DNA from: an uncultured Gammaproteobacteria bacterium
GTDB lineage: Bacteria > Patescibacteriota > Microgenomatia > UBA10105 > UBA927
Direction of reading: 5' to 3'
DNA length: 64,000 bases
Assembly: GCA_964527425.1 (NCBI GenBank)
Contig: CAZGOA010000002.1
Location: forward strand, 5,000-68,999
A model generated the notes under the pieces. It saw nothing but the letters and a program-made list of their open reading frames with translations. It made no database searches and was not told where the DNA came from. Below, piece after piece: positions 44,175 to 50,965 of this stretch (position 1 is its first letter; the number at the start of each line of letters is the position of its first letter). The position numbers were made by a program, and so were the translations under genes.

Positions 44175-44960
44175 TTAGTTCTTCGATAATTCTTGTACTG
44201 CTTCTTTTGAAAAAATAATGTACTTGTGATGCATGACGGCATATGTATTAACATCGGAAACAGGTAATACATCTACATACGTAATATTTCTCATTGCTCT
44301 GCGGATTACTAATTCATCTTTTGCAAGAAGAACTAATGTTTTTCCTGTTATTTCTATCTGGTTCAATAATTGCACGAAGGCTTTTGTTTTTAATTCCAGT
44401 TTATTCATGTTTTCTACAATCTTGATAGATCCTTCGTTATATTGAAGTGTTAATGCACTTGAAAGCGCTCTTGTTTTCATTTTTTTCGGTAATTCAAGCC
44501 TAAAAGAATGTGGTACTGGTCCTAAGGCTTTTCCTCCTCCTACAAAAATAGGAGCTCGAATGTTACCGTGTCGTGCGTTTCCGGTGCCTTTTTGTTTAAA
44601 TATTTTTCTCGATGACCCTTCTACTTGACCTCGAGTTTTGGCTGAAGCACTTCCTTCGCGTTGATTTGCAAGATACACGCGTACTGCTTGGGCAATGAGC
44701 TGCTTATTAATTTTTGCTGCAAAGTACTGTTCTGGTAATGTAAGGGTTCCTGTCTTTGCTCCTTTTATGTCATATACTTCTGTAGAAAGTCCTTTTGATT
44801 TCGTAACTTTTTTCTCTTCTTTTACAGCCATATCAGTTGCAACTGCTTCTTTTTTTACTTTTGAAGCTGTTGGTTTTGAAGCTACTTTTGTCGCTTTTTG
44901 TGTTTTGTTTTCTTTGGTAGCTTTTGGCTTGCCTGATGTAGTGTTTGCTGTTTTTGTCAT
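44175..44960 (-). CDS. rplD: 50S ribosomal protein L4 (about 55-aa Lys/Thr-rich N-terminal extension)
   Basis: Core ...KQKGTGNARHGNIRAPIFVGGGKALGP... preceded by MTKTANTTSGKPKATKENKTQKATK... Confidence 0.9.
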   Translation of the reverse strand: MTKTANTTSGKPKATKENKTQKATKVASKPTASKVKKEAVATDMAVKEEKKVTKSKGLSTEVYDIKGAKTGTLTLPEQYFAAKINKQLIAQAVRVYLANQREGSASAKTRGQVEGSSRKIFKQKGTGNARHGNIRAPIFVGGGKALGPVPHSFRLELPKKMKTRALSSALTLQYNEGSIKIVENMNKLELKTKAFVQLLNQIEITGKTLVLLAKDELVIRRAMRNITYVDVLPVSDVNTYAVMHHKYIIFSKEAVQELSKN

Positions 44961-44963
44961 AGG

Positions 44964-45587
44964 TTAATTTGTTTTGGTCATTTTTACTAAACTTTGTTTT
45001 GCTCCGGGTATAAGTCCTTTAACTGTAATAGTGCTTTTTTCGGAATTAATTGCAACGATTTTAAGTCCCTTTATGGTTATTGTGTCATTACCCATTCTCC
45101 CGGCCATTCTCAGTCCTGGATATACTCTTCCTGGTGTGGTACCGGCTCCTATTGATCCTGGAGCTCTCCATCTGTCGCTTTGTCCGTGTGTTTTTGGTCC
45201 GCCAGAAAATCCATGTCGTTTTACGACTCCGGCAAATCCTTTTCCTTTGGATACTCCTGTTATAGTTAGCGTATCTCCAACAGTGAACACCTCTTCTGGT
45301 TTTACTTCTTTACCTGCTGTTATTGTTTCATCGAACTCTTGTGTATTGGATAAACGTAAAAAGCGGGGTGCTTTCTCGACTCCCGCTTTTTTCATAATGC
45401 CTTGAATTGGTTTTGTTGTTTTTCGTTTGTTTCCAATTGCAAGAAGATATCCTTTTGATTGACTATCATTGACGATACGAGCCACGACTGTAGGCTCTAT
45501 TGATATATGAGTTACTGCAATTTGAGTACCGTCCTCCTGAAAGAGTCGGCTTTGGCCTAATTTGAATCCGAATAGTGTTGTAATCAT
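44964..45587 (-). CDS. rplC: 50S ribosomal protein L3
   Basis: MITTLFGFKLGQSRLFQEDGTQIAVTHISIEP... and ...KGKGFAGVVKRHGFSGGPKTHGQS... Confidence 0.95.
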   Translation of the reverse strand: MITTLFGFKLGQSRLFQEDGTQIAVTHISIEPTVVARIVNDSQSKGYLLAIGNKRKTTKPIQGIMKKAGVEKAPRFLRLSNTQEFDETITAGKEVKPEEVFTVGDTLTITGVSKGKGFAGVVKRHGFSGGPKTHGQSDRWRAPGSIGAGTTPGRVYPGLRMAGRMGNDTITIKGLKIVAINSEKSTITVKGLIPGAKQSLVKMTKTN

Positions 45588-45595
45588 ATTTAACC

Positions 45596-45623
45596 AAAAA
45601 AAGAGACCTCAGGTTTTGAGGTC
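45596..45623 (-). terminator. Hairpin plus U7 tract (intrinsic-terminator-like) ending 8 nt before the rplC start codon
   Basis: Minus-strand RNA: AGACCUCA-AAACC-UGAGGUCU (perfect 8-bp stem), then CUUUUUUUGG, then UUAAAU AUG of rplC. Confidence 0.5.
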
Positions 45624-45873
45624 TTTGTACTCAATTACCCGAGACTTTTGGTATTCACTTACTTTTTACTGGCAAAGTAATGTTCATGAATTTCACAATT
45701 ATACCAGAGTATCTCTTTAAGTTCAATTTCTATTTTTTCGTATCAATGTTTAGCGAATAGGTAAATATTATATCAAACTCTTGAACTTTTGTCTCTAGGA
45801 TAGTATTTCCTGAAAATGCAGCTAAAATAGTATATTTATTCATATCCTTTTTTATCGTTGTAAACAGTTATTT

Positions 45874-46392
45874 TTATTTAGATATTTCTGAAATATAGTG
45901 ACTTGCAGCACTAATACAGTTAGTTAATACCGACAATAACTCTCTATCCTTGGAATCGTTCATATGATCTGCGTTAAATTCGCCATTACGTTGAACAAAC
46001 GTTGCTGTTGATCCTGACAGTTTGACCGTTGCTGATTGCATATTTTCACCATTAAAACGAATTGTGACTTTGAATAACTCTGTAGGAGTAGGACTTACTT
46101 CTTGAATGAGGGTAGTACGAGTATGTGTAGGACCTGCAATATTTGTACCTGTGATGTTCACTTCTGTAAACACTTGTAAACTGCCATTATTATCTTTGAG
46201 TTTATCTTGCACTGCTATAACGAGCAGTTGTGGAGCTGAGTCTAGAATATGTTGTTGAGGATTACGAACGCGGATAACATCTTTTGGAATTCCGGAACTA
46301 TCACTAGATCTACTCCATGTGATTTGCTCTTCACCATTTTTTACCAGTATAGGATTTTGATTATCGATGCTTCTTAGTTGTTCAACTAGCAT
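45874..46392 (-). CDS. Hypothetical protein (172 aa) inserted between rpsJ and rplC
   Basis: ORF on the operon strand. No signal peptide or TM. No SD upstream of the ATG. No motif recognised. Confidence 0.4.
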   Translation of the reverse strand: MLVEQLRSIDNQNPILVKNGEEQITWSRSSDSSGIPKDVIRVRNPQQHILDSAPQLLVIAVQDKLKDNNGSLQVFTEVNITGTNIAGPTHTRTTLIQEVSPTPTELFKVTIRFNGENMQSATVKLSGSTATFVQRNGEFNADHMNDSKDRELLSVLTNCISAASHYISEISK

Positions 46393-46502
46393 ATGAGTAC
46401 AAAATTACATTACTGTTTGAAGAAAAGGATTGTATGTTGTTTTCACCTGGAAAGACTACTTGGGGAAGCTTGTTTTGTATTTCCCATCTTCTTCTTTCCA
46501 TA

Positions 46503-46811
46503 TTACATTTTAATTTCTACATCAACTCCTGCAGGGAGATCTAAATGCATCAGTTGATCAATCGTTTTATCTGTAGGTTCTAGAATATCAATTAATCGTT
46601 TATGTGTTTTGAGGAGAAAGTCTTCTCGACTATTGCGGTCAATAAACGTACTTTTAGCAACATTAAAATGTTGTTTATCGGTTGGAAGGGGAACAGGTCC
46701 AACAACACGTGCACCAGTTCGGACTGCTGTGTCAAGAATTTTTTGACAACAATCGTCTATGACTCTGCTGTCGTATGCTTTTAAACGTACTCTGATTCTT
46801 CCTTTTGGCAT
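46503..46811 (-). CDS. rpsJ: 30S ribosomal protein S10
   Basis: MPKGRIRVRLKAYDSRVIDDCCQKILDTAVRTGARVVGPVPLPT... The start was set at the internal Met; the track ORF extends to 46862. Confidence 0.9.
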   Translation of the reverse strand: MPKGRIRVRLKAYDSRVIDDCCQKILDTAVRTGARVVGPVPLPTDKQHFNVAKSTFIDRNSREDFLLKTHKRLIDILEPTDKTIDQLMHLDLPAGVDVEIKM

Positions 46812-46888
46812 GATGGTAATTGTTTGGCAGGTCTTTAGTGTTTTGAGGGCTTTGCTCTTCATGCAAAGCCCTCTTTATCATAAAAATC

Positions 46889-48076
46889 TTAGCTTAATAC
46901 TTTGGCAACTACTCCCGCTCCTACTGTTCGGCCACCTTCACGGATAGCAAATCGCATTCCGTCCTCTAAGGCAACTGGCGTGATAAGGGTTACTACCATT
47001 TTGGTATTGTCTCCTGGCATAACCATTTCAACTCCTTGTGGAAGTTCGATTTCTCCAGTTACGTCAGTTGTACGGATATAGAACTGTGGTCTGTATCCTT
47101 TAAAAAATGGCGTGTGTCGTCCACCTTCTTCTTTTGCAAGAATATATACTTCTGCATCGAATTTGGTATGTGGCTTAACAGACCCTGGTGCAGCCAAAAC
47201 TTGTCCGCGCTCAACTTGGTCTTTTTCAACTCCTCGGAGTAATACTCCGACGTTATCACCTGCTTGTCCCTGATCTAAGAGTTTTCTAAACATTTCAACA
47301 CCAGTTACAACAGTTGATTGTGTTGCTTTGATACCGACAATTTCAATAGTGTCGTTGACCTTTACTACTCCTCTTTCTACTCGGCCGGTAACAACTGTTC
47401 CTCGACCTTTGATAGAGAAGACGTCTTCAACTGGCATTAAGAATGGTTTATCAAGTTCACGGGTTGGAGTTGGGATGTATTCATCAACCGTATCCATAAG
47501 CTTGAGGATTGCTGCTTCTGCTTCGGCATCACCTTCAATTGCTTTGAGTGAACTTCCACGGATAACTGGAACAGTATCTCCTGGGAAACCATATTTCGTT
47601 AAGAGTTCACGAACTTCCATTTCGACTAAGTCGAGGAGTTCTTTATCTTGAACCATATCGCATTTGTTCATGTAGACAACGATAGCTGGAACTGCAACTT
47701 GCTTTGCCAAGAGAATATGTTCTCTGGTCTGTGGCATAGGACCATCTGGAGCGGAAACAACAAGAATTGCACCATCCATTTGAGCAGCTCCGGTGATCAT
47801 GTTTTTGATGTAGTCTGCATGACCAGGGGCATCTATATGAGCGTAGTGTCTGTTTTTTGTTTCATATTCTGAATGATGAATGTTAATTGTGACTCCACGA
47901 GCTTTTTCTTCAGGTGCATTGTCGATTTCATCGTATTTTAGCGCTTTAGCAAGACCTTGTTTTGCAAGTACTTGTGTAATAGCTGAAGTTGTTGTGGTTT
48001 TACCATGATCAACGTGACCAATGGTTCCAATATTTAAATGTGGTTTAGAACGATCAAATTTTTGTTGATCTGCCAT
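46889..48076 (-). CDS. tuf: Elongation factor Tu
   Basis: ...[24 protein letters not shown]... The start was set at MADQQKF; the track ORF extends to 48115. Confidence 0.95.
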
Positions 48077-48191
48077 ATATCCTCCTATAAAATTTTGTAA
48101 TACCTTATTAGCCATCCTGCTATCAAACCATTTTTGAGGTGGTCTGATGGTGGGTTGGCTAAACGTTTATGAATAATGATAATATCACAGT

Positions 48192-50297
48192 TTAGGCCGC
48201 CTTCGCAATAATCTTTTCCGTTATATTTCGTGGAACTTCTTCGTAATGGCTTGGTTCCATATAGTATGTTGCACGACCCTTGGACATACTTCGCAATGTT
48301 GTTGCATATCCTGAGAGTTCAGCTAAAGGAACTTGAGCTAATATGACAGTTGTGTGGCCTCGTTTTTGTGTGCCTTCAATCTGTGCTCTTTTTGATCCAA
48401 GATCTCCGATAATATCTCCCATGAATTCATCAGGCGTTGTAATCTCACATTTCATGATTGGTTCAAGAAGTACAGGAGCAGCGTTCTTTACTGAATTCTG
48501 AAGTGCCATAGATCCTGCAATTTTAAATGCAATTTCTGATGAGTCAACCTCATGATAGGTTCCATCATAGAGCGTAACTTTCATATCTACCAATGGGAAT
48601 CCTGCAACAACGCCATTTTCCATGGCTTCTTTGACGCCTTTTCCAACTGCTGGAATGTATTCGTTGGGAATTGCTCCACCTTTGATAGCATCGACGAATT
48701 CAAATCCTTGACCACGTGGGAGCGGTTCTAATCTGATCAGTGCATGACCATATTGTCCTCGGCCTCCTGATTGGCGAATATACTTTCCTTCACCTTCTGC
48801 ATTTTTGGTAATGGTTTCTTTGTAGGCAACTTGTGGAGCTCCGACATTTGCATCAACTTTGAATTCTCGCTTCATGCGGTCAACTAAAATTTCAAGATGA
48901 AGCTCTCCCATTCCCCAAATGATGGTTTGATTTGTTTCTTGATTAGTTTTGATTTTAAAAGTTGGGTCTTCTTCTGAAAGTCTTTGCAATGCATATCCCA
49001 TTTTTTCCTGGTCATTTTTGGTTTTTGGTTCAATGGCCAGTGAGATAACTGGATCTGGGAATGAAATTTTTTCTAAGACGATTGGATGATCCGGGTCACA
49101 AATAGTATCACCAGTAATGGTGTCTTTAAATCCTACTACTGCAACAATTTCTCCAGCATATGCTTCTTTGATTTCTTCTCGTTGGTTTGCATGCATAAGA
49201 AGAAGTCTTCCTATGCGTTCTTGCACATCTTTACTTGAGTTATAGGTATAGGAGCCTGACACTAATTTGCCTGAATATACTCTTACATATGTGATTTTAC
49301 CCACGTGTGGATCAATTTGAACTTTAAAGGCAAGTCCTGAAAATGGTTCTTCGTTAATTCTTTTTCTGATTTGTGGTTCTTCTGTTTTAGGGTGAGTACC
49401 TGCAACTGGTGGAAGGTCGATTGGGGAAGGAAGATAATCAACCACGGCATCAAGGAGTGGCTGGACACCTTTATTGCGCAAGCTGGTTCCACAGTAAATT
49501 GGAACGAGTTTGTAGGCAATAACTGCCCGGCGAAGTGCTGCTTTTAATTCTTCAACAGAAATTTCTTCACCGTTGAGGAATTTTTCCATTAACACATCGT
49601 CTGTTTCGGAAATACGTTCAATGAGTGCAAGTCGACTTGATTCTACTTCATCTTTAATATCTGCAGGGATGTCATCGGACACATCAAATGCAGCACCTAA
49701 TTCTTCACCTGTCCATACATATGCTTTTCTGCTTAAAAGATCGACAAATCCTTTGAATGTATTTTCTACTCCGATTGGAACGACCATGACAGCGGTTCTT
49801 GCACCTAATCGTTCTTCTATTGATTTGATTGTGGCTCGAAAGTCTGCTCCCAACTTATCCATTTTGTTGATGAAACAAAGACGTGGAACTTTGTATTTGT
49901 CTGCTTGGTGCCAGACTGTTTCTGATTGGGATTGAACTCCTTCTTCTGCATCAAGGACAGTGATCCCTCCATCAAGTACTCGGAGTGAACGTTCTACTTC
50001 TGCGGTAAAATCTACGTGTCCTGGTGTATCGATAATATTAAAGCGGTAGCCTTTCCAAAATGCAGTAGTTGCAGCAGATACGATGGTGATCCCTCGTTCT
50101 TTCTCTTGTTCCATCCAGTCCATTTGGGTGTTACCTTCATCGATATCACCAATTTTGTATGTTCTTCCTGTGTAATACAGAATACGCTCTGTGGTTGTGG
50201 TTTTACCAGCATCTATGTGTGCGATAATTCCAATGTTACGTACTTTATCTAGTGGTACATTACGATCTGATGTAAGAGTTGTTTGTGGGTTTGCCAT
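48192..50297 (-). CDS. fusA: Elongation factor G
   Basis: [44 protein letters not shown]... The start was set at ATG 50297; the track ORF extends to 50360. Confidence 0.95.
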
Positions 50298-50338
50298 ATA
50301 GTTTTTTTGTAATAAATATTTGTTATGTTTTAAACGAC

Positions 50339-50367
50339 AAAAAAACTGTTTCAAAGACATGAAACAG
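50339..50367 (-). terminator. Hairpin plus U7 intrinsic-terminator-like structure 42-70 nt upstream of fusA
   Basis: Minus-strand RNA: CUGUUUCA-UGUCUU-UGAAACAG (perfect 8-bp stem) followed by UUUUUUU. Confidence 0.5.
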
Positions 50368-50965
50368 TCAATGCGTACAAAAACATTTTACAAAATATTG
50401 TGTGTGTTGTCTATACGGGATGTATGTTAAAAAGGATCACCACATAAATCGTATGGCATGCATACTGGATTAGCAAATGAAGACACTACATACTCAGTGA
50501 CAAAATAACTTACGATAAATAATGAACCAAGGAATACGTAAATAAATATTTTAGAAAGAACGATGTTATGCTTATATCTTTCATAGAAATCTTGAAGAAA
50601 AATAAAAAGAATAAAGTTAATAATAGTACTAATAGTAATTAATATATTTTTTTAATGGAAACTTAAAATACCCTAAGAATGAATATACTCTTGGTTGATA
50701 CCCAGGATATCCAAATAATAAATGTATGTTTGATAACAAATATAGCAAAGAACTATAGAACTTATTCCACTTAATAACGAAATAAATCGATTATGTTTTG
50801 TAACTTTTTAAACAAGTACGTAACAGCCTATTGAAACCAAAGTAATAAATAGAATTTGTGTAACAGGAATAAGTAATACTTCAATAAAATTGATATGGAG
50901 TTTGATTATTGGCGACACTAATCCCATACTATTATATTATACTTGTAAAATCTGTATATTCATTT

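Follow-up and report, generated by a model that had tools for sequence, protein, structure and literature searches.

An orphan gene at a recurrent insertion site between rpsJ and rplC in Patescibacteria, upstream of a conserved candidate attenuator leader

We analyzed a 64,000-nucleotide stretch of DNA (the window) in which a 172-codon open reading frame (ORF), ORF172, lies between the ribosomal protein genes rpsJ (S10) and rplC (L3). An initial annotation had reported this ORF on the operon strand, and we confirmed it at 45874 to 46392 on the minus strand. The pattern of conservation indicates that ORF172 is a real gene, most likely a genuine, dispensable, lineage-restricted accessory gene of Microgenomatia, Gottesmanbacteria-like Patescibacteria. 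Our overall reading, which we consider probable, is that a fast-evolving dispensable orphan, the remnant of a tandem pair, occupies an insertion hotspot at a transcription-unit boundary, upstream of an ancestral and near-invariant attenuator leader of rplC.

ORF length alone is weak evidence for a gene, because shuffling the window 50 times gave longest open runs with a mean of 139 codons and a maximum of 191. The case for a gene therefore rests on conservation. We searched related genomes for homologs and their context, as the initial annotation had proposed, and found orthologs in the same rpsJ-ORF-rplC slot in L001/L002 (P0002; 174 amino acids [aa], 68 to 71% aa identity) and in L091 (P0005; 175 aa, 53% aa identity). 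The frame is held over 172 to 175 codons in these three lineages, and the indels of 3, 6, and 9 nucleotides (nt) are all multiples of 3. Using the Nei-Gojobori method, we found that the ratio of nonsynonymous to synonymous divergence (dN/dS) of ORF172 was 0.52 for the window versus L001, 0.50 for the window versus L091, and 0.44 for L001 versus L091. A Fisher test of pN versus pS against neutrality, which covers the two comparisons with L091, gave p values of 6e-4 (window) and 7e-5 (L001). The dS of ORF172 was 0.33 to 0.77, within the range of the neighboring genes. We concluded that the product of ORF172 is a folded protein and that purifying selection on it is weak.

The initial annotation had named a spurious ORF and an assembly error as the ways in which it could be wrong. 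If ORF172 were spurious, it would be a chance open frame in an AT-rich spacer or a decaying, functionless pseudogene. The long open runs of the shuffles, a dN/dS of 0.8 to 1.2 in the closest lineages, an in-frame stop in L090, and the lack of a database match of any kind fit that explanation. However, the frame was kept in three lineages despite a dS of up to 0.77 and several indels, dN/dS was significantly below 1 in both tested comparisons, a 23%-identical paralog has the same predicted order of secondary structure, and six sequences sufficed for a confident AlphaFold2 model. We therefore regard a spurious ORF as very unlikely. An assembly artefact is excluded because the rpsJ-ORF172-rplC arrangement was recovered in independently assembled contigs of more than 15 sequencing runs.

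ORF172 evolves much faster than the genes around it. The dN/dS of S10, L3, L23, L2, and EF-Tu was 0.01 to 0.10, and that of L4, the highest among the ribosomal proteins compared, was 0.13 to 0.19. The dN of ORF172 was about 10 to 40 times that of S10, L3, L23, and L2, and where ORF172 is 68% identical the flanking S10 and L3 are 99% identical. Three strain comparisons showed 1, 3, and 5 changed ORF172 codons, all of them nonsynonymous, with 0 to 1 changes in rpsJ and none in rplC. The six distinct strain substitutions were G115S, L95P, G127D, T129I, T131A, and D149A. These are not adenine-specific in alignments judged by eye, and we rejected diversity-generating or adenine-specific hypermutation.

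The genes and elements of the locus, in the direction of transcription, are as follows.

48192 to 50360, minus strand: fusA.
46889 to 48115, minus strand: tuf.
46503 to 46811, minus strand: rpsJ (S10), 102 aa from MPKGR; Pfam Ribosomal_S10 is recorded on orthologous genes.
46382 to 46501, minus strand: upstream ORF of 39 codons, within the 110-nt rpsJ-ORF172 spacer.
45874 to 46392, minus strand (operon strand): ORF172, 172 aa, ATG start; the B-type member of a two-paralog orphan family.
45801 to 45873, minus strand: variable spacer 3' of the ORF172 stop codon.
45767 to 45795, minus strand: upstream promoter-like block, GAGACA-17 nt-TGATATAAT, kept in the window, L001, L003, L090, L091, and L094.
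45698 to 45726, minus strand: proximal promoter-like block, TTGAAC-17 nt-TGGTATAAT, homologous to the TTGAGT...GAGATACTYTGGTATACT block of ORF-less relatives.
45588 to 45697, minus strand: putative rplC leader RNA of about 110 nt.
45596 to 45624, minus strand: terminator hairpin and U-run, AGACCUCA-AAACC-UGAGGUCU at 45624 to 45604, then C and U7 at 45602 to 45596.
44964 to 45587, minus strand: rplC (L3), 207 aa, which heads the downstream ribosomal protein cluster.

The genes rplD, rplW, and rplB follow rplC on the minus strand. The product of rplD (44175 to 44960, minus strand), L4, has 261 aa and carries a Lys/Ala/Thr-rich N-terminal extension of about 60 residues. Some assemblies call rpsJ as a 119-aa gene (start at 46862, with the ATG inside the hairpin region from 46812 to 46862); the 102-aa version from MPKGR, which agrees with homologs, is likely the true one. 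The noncoding flanks of ORF172 are 110 nt on the rpsJ side (46393 to 46502), as annotated, and 286 nt on the rplC side (45588 to 45873), where about 250 bp had been given. The GC content of the ORF172 region is similar to that of the neighboring genes. As had also been noted, ORF172 has no Shine-Dalgarno (SD) sequence. This is uninformative because an SD-like core is present at only 8 of the 52 long ORFs of the window; rpsJ, rplC, and rplD lack one as well.

A profile search revealed a second paralog type, A (P0007 and P0008), of 183 to 184 aa, 23% identical to ORF172, with a net charge of about -15 and the same predicted order of secondary structure. It is present directly after rpsJ in L091 and L092 and absent from the window. 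In L091, it lies between rpsJ and the ORF172 ortholog, with its ATG 1 nt after the rpsJ stop codon, and the two genes of this tandem pair are mutual paralogs, not a toxin-antidote pair. We found no paralog A remnant in the 110-nt spacer of the window, where similarity is limited to a shared TAATATGG. These comparisons suggest that ORF172 is likely the remnant of an old tandem paralog pair. A further sign of loss comes from L090 (425 to 940), in which codon 72 of the ORF172 ortholog is an in-frame TAG, the corresponding codon of L091 (9365 to 10528) being CAG. The L090 contig carrying this nonsense codon was seen in two samples.

A single nucleotide separates the rpsJ stop codon from the start of the 39-codon upstream ORF. 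This start is at the TAATATGG that also marks the paralog A start in L091, and the upstream ORF ends 8 nt past the ORF172 ATG. It is open in the window, L003, L093, and L094, and also in L001, with a 3-nt in-frame indel. Its amino acid sequence is no better conserved than its DNA. This short ORF could serve translational coupling or could be left over from paralog A. We found no promoter- or terminator-like site between rpsJ and ORF172, which suggests read-through from the strong tuf-rpsJ unit. The tuf-rpsJ transcript would then probably extend through ORF172 at its 3' end, perhaps with translational coupling through the 39-codon ORF.

The predicted ORF172 protein is soluble, with a pI of 5.8, and its family is acidic to neutral (pI 4.5 to 6.8) with no transmembrane segment. 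As the initial annotation had proposed, we ran remote homology detection and structure prediction; these yielded a confident fold and no significant relatives. AlphaFold2 with a six-sequence alignment gave a pLDDT of 77 and a pTM of 0.76, and a run with three sequences (pLDDT of 40) was uninformative. In the model, a short N-terminal helix precedes nine beta strands arranged as consecutive hairpins, with a disordered loop at residues 87 to 100, and a 26-residue helix lies at the C terminus. The fold is thus probably a beta meander of nine strands that packs against the long C-terminal helix. The columns invariant between A- and B-type proteins are M1, E4, R7, N11, P14, G20, E22, I24, N44, P45, L57, I59, G82, G87, R112, Q119, S120, F132, G137, V155, I160, and Y166. 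They point to no catalytic motif and suggest that the protein is non-enzymatic.

We found no credible Pfam, PHROGs, PADLOC, or NCBIfam family match for ORF172 and its relatives, in line with the earlier statement that the protein has no recognizable motif or transmembrane segment. The sole PADLOC, Pfam, and NCBIfam matches had E values of 0.018 to 0.13, far under the curated cutoffs, so that no credible profile in these three collections places ORF172 among toxin-antitoxin or anti-phage defence systems. A sequence profile search of the PDB gave no usable match (the best was interleukin-16, with an E value of 0.89). Foldseek searches with the model found nothing significant in the PDB (best E value, 0.013) or BFVD (best E value, 0.018); TM scores relative to the query were at most 0.24 and 0.38, respectively, and root mean square deviations were mostly 10 to 20 Å. 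Helix-grip and cup folds (START/Bet v 1 and lipocalin) and single-stranded RNA (ssRNA) phage coat folds, which turned up among the best-ranked but nonsignificant Foldseek matches, resemble the model in their succession of a short N-terminal helix, an antiparallel beta meander, and a long C-terminal helix. We claim no membership, and we rejected the START/Bet v 1, lipocalin, and levivirus coat folds since structural superposition was not significant and there was no sequence-profile match.

Further family members were equally scarce. Three word-indexed searches of 5.8 billion proteins and an exhaustive hidden Markov model search of 1.84 billion representatives found no further real ones, scanning metagenomes with the family alignment yielded no relative among the matches listed, and tblastn of ORF172 against phage and plasmid collections gave no match. 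A 1,789-aa repeat protein (P0004; E value of 3.8e-5 over 9 stretches) is likely a spurious match, a short motif recurring in tandem repeats. Here and below, the GTDB and metagenomic relatives are the matches listed by the searches, and closer relatives may exist. With hmmsearch, we detected no ORF172 homolog in the 80 relatives listed with 68 to 93% identical S10; L010 also lacks the gene.

The initial annotation had suggested that ORF172 might be a lineage-specific ribosome-associated factor acquired into the S10 operon. The lineage-specific acquisition stands. Recruitment of a factor for translation or ribosome association into the S10 cluster would fit the operon-strand position between rpsJ and rplC with no predicted promoter or terminator of its own, the paralog A start 1 nt after rpsJ in L091, which suggests coexpression with S10, and the presence of some purifying selection. 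Broad conservation and strong purifying selection were not what we found, however. The dN/dS of 0.44 to 0.52 compares with 0.01 to 0.19 for the neighbors, at nonsynonymous rates 10 to 40 times theirs, and the proteins are acidic to neutral, strongly acidic in the case of paralog A. The clade is narrow, the gene being absent from the 80 relatives and L010; L090 carries a nonsense allele, the window lacks paralog A, and relatives hold toxin-antitoxin modules and enzymes in the same slot (see below). Ribosome association is thus highly unlikely. Also highly improbable, in our estimation, is the broader proposal that the family of ORF172 and paralog A is functionally linked to translation or to the attenuator, as a new-fold factor that makes use of this control point or even adjusts it by binding, e.g., S10 (NusE) or the leader RNA. 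Instead, because of the fast nonsynonymous change, the all-nonsynonymous strain polymorphism, the tandem paralogy, the gene loss, and the nonsense allele, the sequence comparisons point to a binding protein of an adaptive or conflict type, not to a ribosome component or a housekeeping protein.

The slot itself has a history of insertions. The initial annotation had described the rpsJ-rplC junction as almost universally uninterrupted. This agrees with the broad GTDB sample, in which the gap is at most 135 nt in 70 of the 78 loci listed and exceeds 400 nt in 2, but not with the window's own clade: in 14 of the 59 metagenomic relatives (Patescibacteria) listed with both genes, the gap is 440 to 2,147 nt. 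We found the following cargo at the junction.

L130 and L157: a PIN toxin with a small AbrB-type antitoxin-like ORF (the L130 partner has no Pfam match, and the L157 partner is so assigned by appearance).
L162: HicA with a HicB-like partner.
L151: a BrnT-like protein, under the Pfam cutoff.
L168: two tandem histidine phosphatases.
L143: DinB_2.
L149: Replic_Relax.
L176: a nucleotidyltransferase.
L139 and L172: one shared unknown 135-aa protein.
L023 (GTDB): three further genes.

No junction cargo gene of the listed relatives was related to ORF172 by hmmsearch. A hairpin and T-run stay beside rplC in 10 of the 14 long-gap loci, and the cargo therefore lies upstream of the leader, as ORF172 does. 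In ORF-less relatives, the promoter block begins immediately after the rpsJ stop codon. Thus, rpsJ probably closes a fusA-tuf-rpsJ unit and rplC opens a new one, and the junction would tolerate insertions because it is already a transcription-unit boundary. We concluded that the rpsJ-rplC junction is a recurrent insertion site in this clade and that ORF172 is one passenger. Our literature searches on this junction in Patescibacteria found nothing specific.

We assigned the clade by the names attached to similar proteins. At 90% clustering, S10 of the window groups with proteins whose named sources are Candidatus Gottesmanbacteria and "Patescibacteria group" metagenome-assembled genomes. The best L3 and S10 matches listed among GTDB representatives are Woesebacteria, Levyibacteria, Dojkabacteria, "Patescibacteria group," Chloroflexota/Dehalococcoidia, and several labeled Gammaproteobacteria. 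The closest GTDB relative listed, L010 (S10 identity of 91%), is one of the latter, a label we take as a mislabel; L3 identity is at most 54% among the matches listed. The genes rpsE and rplO are direct neighbors and lack an L30 gene between them, the hallmark of the candidate phyla radiation.

We next consider the DNA between ORF172 and rplC. The terminator-like hairpin that had been annotated is present at 45624 to 45604; in DNA letters it reads AGACCTCA/AAACC/TGAGGTCT, followed by C and T7, 8 nt ahead of the rplC ATG. It has the properties of an intrinsic terminator, with an 8-bp stem containing 4 GC pairs, a 5-nt loop, a C plus U7 tract, and a ΔG of -11.7 kcal/mol. Upstream of it, the leader contains a P1 hairpin (about 45691 to 45653), the motif CCAAAAGUCUCGGG (45651 to 45638), and a small CUC/GAG hairpin (45643 to 45641 with 45632 to 45630).

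This leader is far better conserved than the ORF. Between the window and L001, DNA identity is about 93% in the ribosomal protein genes, 61 to 94% per 100 nt in the ORF, and 98 to 100% in the 200 nt before rplC. The approximately 150 nt from the TTGAAC block to the rplC ATG have 3 variable positions across the window, L001, L003, L094, L090, and L091, lineages whose flanking genes have a dS of 0.4 to 0.67 and differ at 30 to 44% of synonymous sites. About 35 variable nt separate the upstream promoter-like block from this conserved block. A 37-aa ORF called in several assemblies at 45730 to 45843 (minus strand), overlapping the promoter-like blocks, was rejected; L001 has ATA in place of its ATG, and the region contains a 1-nt indel.

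The same elements are present in relatives that lack the ORF. In L010 and about 26 metagenomic relatives, the promoter block, the CCAAAAGUCUCGG motif, and the terminator with its U-run stand directly after rpsJ. The whole rpsJ-rplC spacer of L010 is 107 nt and consists of GATACTCTG, a hairpin, AAAAGTCTTGG, 36 nt including the terminator hairpin, T8, and the ATG. The approximately 26 metagenomic relatives (S10 identity of 82 to 93%) have TTGAGT..GAGATACTYTGGTATACT, a variable hairpin, CCAAAAGTCTCGGATGAG, CGACCTCAACCGAGGTCG, a T-run, and the ATG. More widely, a hairpin and T-run occur within 120 nt of rplC in 6 of the 76 GTDB loci listed, those with S10 closest to the window (three labeled Patescibacteria or Levyibacteria and the rest Gammaproteobacteria), and near rplC in most of the 59 metagenomic relatives listed with both genes. 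Because these elements stand in ORF-less relatives, the hairpin is part of an ancestral rplC leader and not punctuation of the ORF.

This result bears on the other suggestion of the initial annotation, that of a small insertion with its own transcriptional punctuation. According to that model, the 915-bp block would have arrived as a mobile or selfish element of small size that supplied both a promoter and a terminator. It is true that ORF172 is followed downstream by promoter-like sites and a canonical intrinsic terminator and that relatives carry mobile-type cargo at the junction (Replic_Relax and toxin-antitoxin pairs). However, the promoter-like blocks and the hairpin belong to the rplC leader, since they also lie between rpsJ and rplC in ORF-less relatives and are far better conserved than the ORF. 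Neither direct nor inverted repeats of the kind that would point to a mobile element flank the region, short matches there being probably due to chance, and we found no transposase or integrase; the GC content is like that of the neighbors, and phage and plasmid collections gave no tblastn match. A mobile insertion is extremely unlikely, and the suggestion of separate punctuation did not hold.

Rfam gave no family at the gathering score in the window and none credible at E values up to 10 in the region from 45500 to 46600. The only Rfam match on the leader, Phe_leader, was rejected (E value of 1.1; 20.8 bits versus a gathering score of 55).

A second spacer of the locus also contains a hairpin. 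In the tuf-rpsJ spacer (46812 to 46888, minus strand), a hairpin at 46845 to 46873 has a constant base, GAGGGCUU/AGCCCUC, and an upper stem that is compensatory among strains (UUUGC/GCAAA, UUCGAU/AUCGGA, and UUCG/CGGA). At 21 to 22 of the 89 positions this spacer differs between strains with identical rpsJ, and no U-run follows on the coding strand. Its sequence suggests that it may be a second structured leader, ahead of rpsJ. A 15-nt near-repeat, CAAAGNCCTCAAAAC (minus strand), is common to the rplC-leader terminator (45613 to 45627) and the hairpin upstream of rpsJ (46840 to 46854); it could be due to chance or be a common recognition element.

The distance from the end of the U-run to the rplC ATG is 6 to 25 nt across loci. 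This leaves no room for a promoter, so that, as far as the sequence tells, every rplC transcript would pass the hairpin. In the window, CUCGGG (45643 to 45638) can alternatively pair with CCUGAG (45613 to 45608) as an antiterminator. In relatives, the corresponding antiterminator pairing persists with compensatory changes in the two segments.

Close relatives: CUCGG with CCGAG.
L010: CUUGG with CCAAG.
L120: CUCGA with UCGAG.
Distant relatives: GGCUACAUAG with CUAUGUGGUCGC.
Distant relatives: GGCUGCAUA with UGUGCAGUC.
Distant relatives: GACUAUUC with GAGUAGUC.

Matched upstream and terminator segments paired better than segments from mismatched loci (mean z of -0.72; t test p of 1e-4; n = 48 distinct targets, with shared ancestry ignored). 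In a 20-sequence alignment (A7), the terminator was 91% paired and the antiterminator 97% paired, compared with 23 to 56% for slid controls overall and 29 to 56% for those of the antiterminator.

These pairings suggest a mechanism. The upstream CUCGG would pair with the last loop bases and the start of the 3' arm (CCGAG), blocking terminator formation. Alternatively, the CUC of the motif would pair with the downstream GAG (CUC-GGAU-GAG), freeing the terminator. By analogy with L4 in Escherichia coli and L20 in Bacillus subtilis, a product of the operon might stabilize the small hairpin and so promote termination; the favored effector, also by analogy, would be one of the ribosomal proteins that the operon encodes, e.g., L4 or L3. 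Such a three-way competition of helices resembles the usual design of protein-controlled attenuators. We judge the evidence evenly balanced on whether the rplC leader acts as a terminator/antiterminator attenuator. It may represent a class of ribosomal protein leaders not described before, responsive to L4 or L3, across Microgenomatia-type Patescibacteria.

ORF172 could also be imagined as a trans-acting partner of the adjacent leader that binds an RNA hairpin and modulates attenuation. It lies immediately upstream of the conserved leader, and its model has a weak, nonsignificant resemblance to ssRNA phage coat proteins in two libraries (E values of 0.06 to 0.7; TM scores of 0.2 to 0.4). Coat proteins of ssRNA phages bind RNA hairpins on a beta sheet. 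Yet the leader is conserved in many ORF-less relatives and is invariant while the ORF changes fast, the protein is acidic, and the fold matches fall short of any significance threshold. We find this role exceedingly improbable and keep to the reading of ORF172 as a dispensable passenger.

Several observations weigh against our overall reading or limit it. There is no toxin, secretion signal, or defence neighbor in the window, and the functional class of ORF172 is read solely from its evolutionary pattern. The dN/dS of 0.8 to 1.2 between the closest lineage pairs is compatible with a gene drifting towards loss, as is a dN/dS of about 0.5. Cotranscription with rpsJ and translation of ORF172 are deduced from the sequence, and the order of events (an ancestral pair followed by loss of A versus a later duplication) is drawn from identity levels alone. 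The promoter-like sites are consensus matches, of which 2 were found in the region and 6.1 are expected by chance. For the attenuator, the covariation statistics ignore kinship, and the cross-group pairing test likewise takes no account of phylogeny. Covariation within the close group was not significant (the control reached the observed value in 45 to 48 of 500 shuffles), because the leader sequences there are nearly invariant.

Known systems offer partial parallels to the leader. The E. coli S10 operon leader reportedly combines L4-mediated, NusA-dependent transcription attenuation with translational control, as described by Zengel and Lindahl. Like it, the leader in the window precedes the L3-L4-L23-L2 cluster, ends in a U-run stem-loop just before the start codon that is obligatory for every transcript, and has an upstream helix adjoining the terminator. 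Unlike it, the leader in the window comes after rpsJ, ahead of rplC rather than ahead of rpsJ, has an explicit predicted antiterminator, and shows no similarity in sequence or to an Rfam covariance model. The B. subtilis infC-rpmI-rplT leader is an L20-controlled terminator/antiterminator attenuator (PMC1865079). Both are leaders of 100 to 200 nt in a ribosomal protein operon with mutually exclusive terminator and antiterminator helices, which are predicted in the window; the operon, the sequence, and the phylum differ.

The organization of the locus has parallels as well. In the cyanobacterial and plastid str operon (rpsL-rpsG-fusA-tufA-rpsJ), rps10 is detached from the rplC cluster. Similarly, in the window the fusA-tuf unit would end with rpsJ and a separate one would begin with rplC; here, however, the units are still neighbors, and only a transcriptional boundary is inferred. 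Chromosomal integration hotspots between core genes hold variable accessory cargo, including toxin-antitoxin modules. The rpsJ-rplC junction likewise has one flanking pair of core genes and differing, unrelated cargo by lineage. Unlike such hotspots, it is inside the most conserved bacterial gene cluster, and we found no integrase, tRNA, or repeat signature in the window.

Two compositional features lie outside the junction. An AT-rich stretch at 50350 to 50950, upstream of fusA, has a GC content of 0.22 to 0.27, and the plus strand of the whole window has a strong strand asymmetry (36% T versus 28% A).

Taken together, these data suggest that the ribosomal protein cluster of these Patescibacteria has a soft spot, the rpsJ-rplC boundary, which gathers toxin-antitoxin modules, enzymes, and orphan genes. 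Such variability matters wherever ribosomal protein synteny is used for binning or phylogenomics of candidate-phyla genomes, and for selecting neutral or high-expression insertion sites as genetic work on these organisms gets under way. ORF172 contributes one more small orphan family, whose fold is predicted with confidence and which has no known relatives; alone it is of modest interest, and the locus gains somewhat in value from the leader and the hotspot. The ribosomal protein leaders of E. coli are narrowly distributed, and to our knowledge no ribosomal protein autogenous-control RNA of this kind has been described in Patescibacteria. The near-invariant rplC leader of these organisms is a concrete candidate, open to testing, for an RNA through which ribosomal proteins control their own synthesis.

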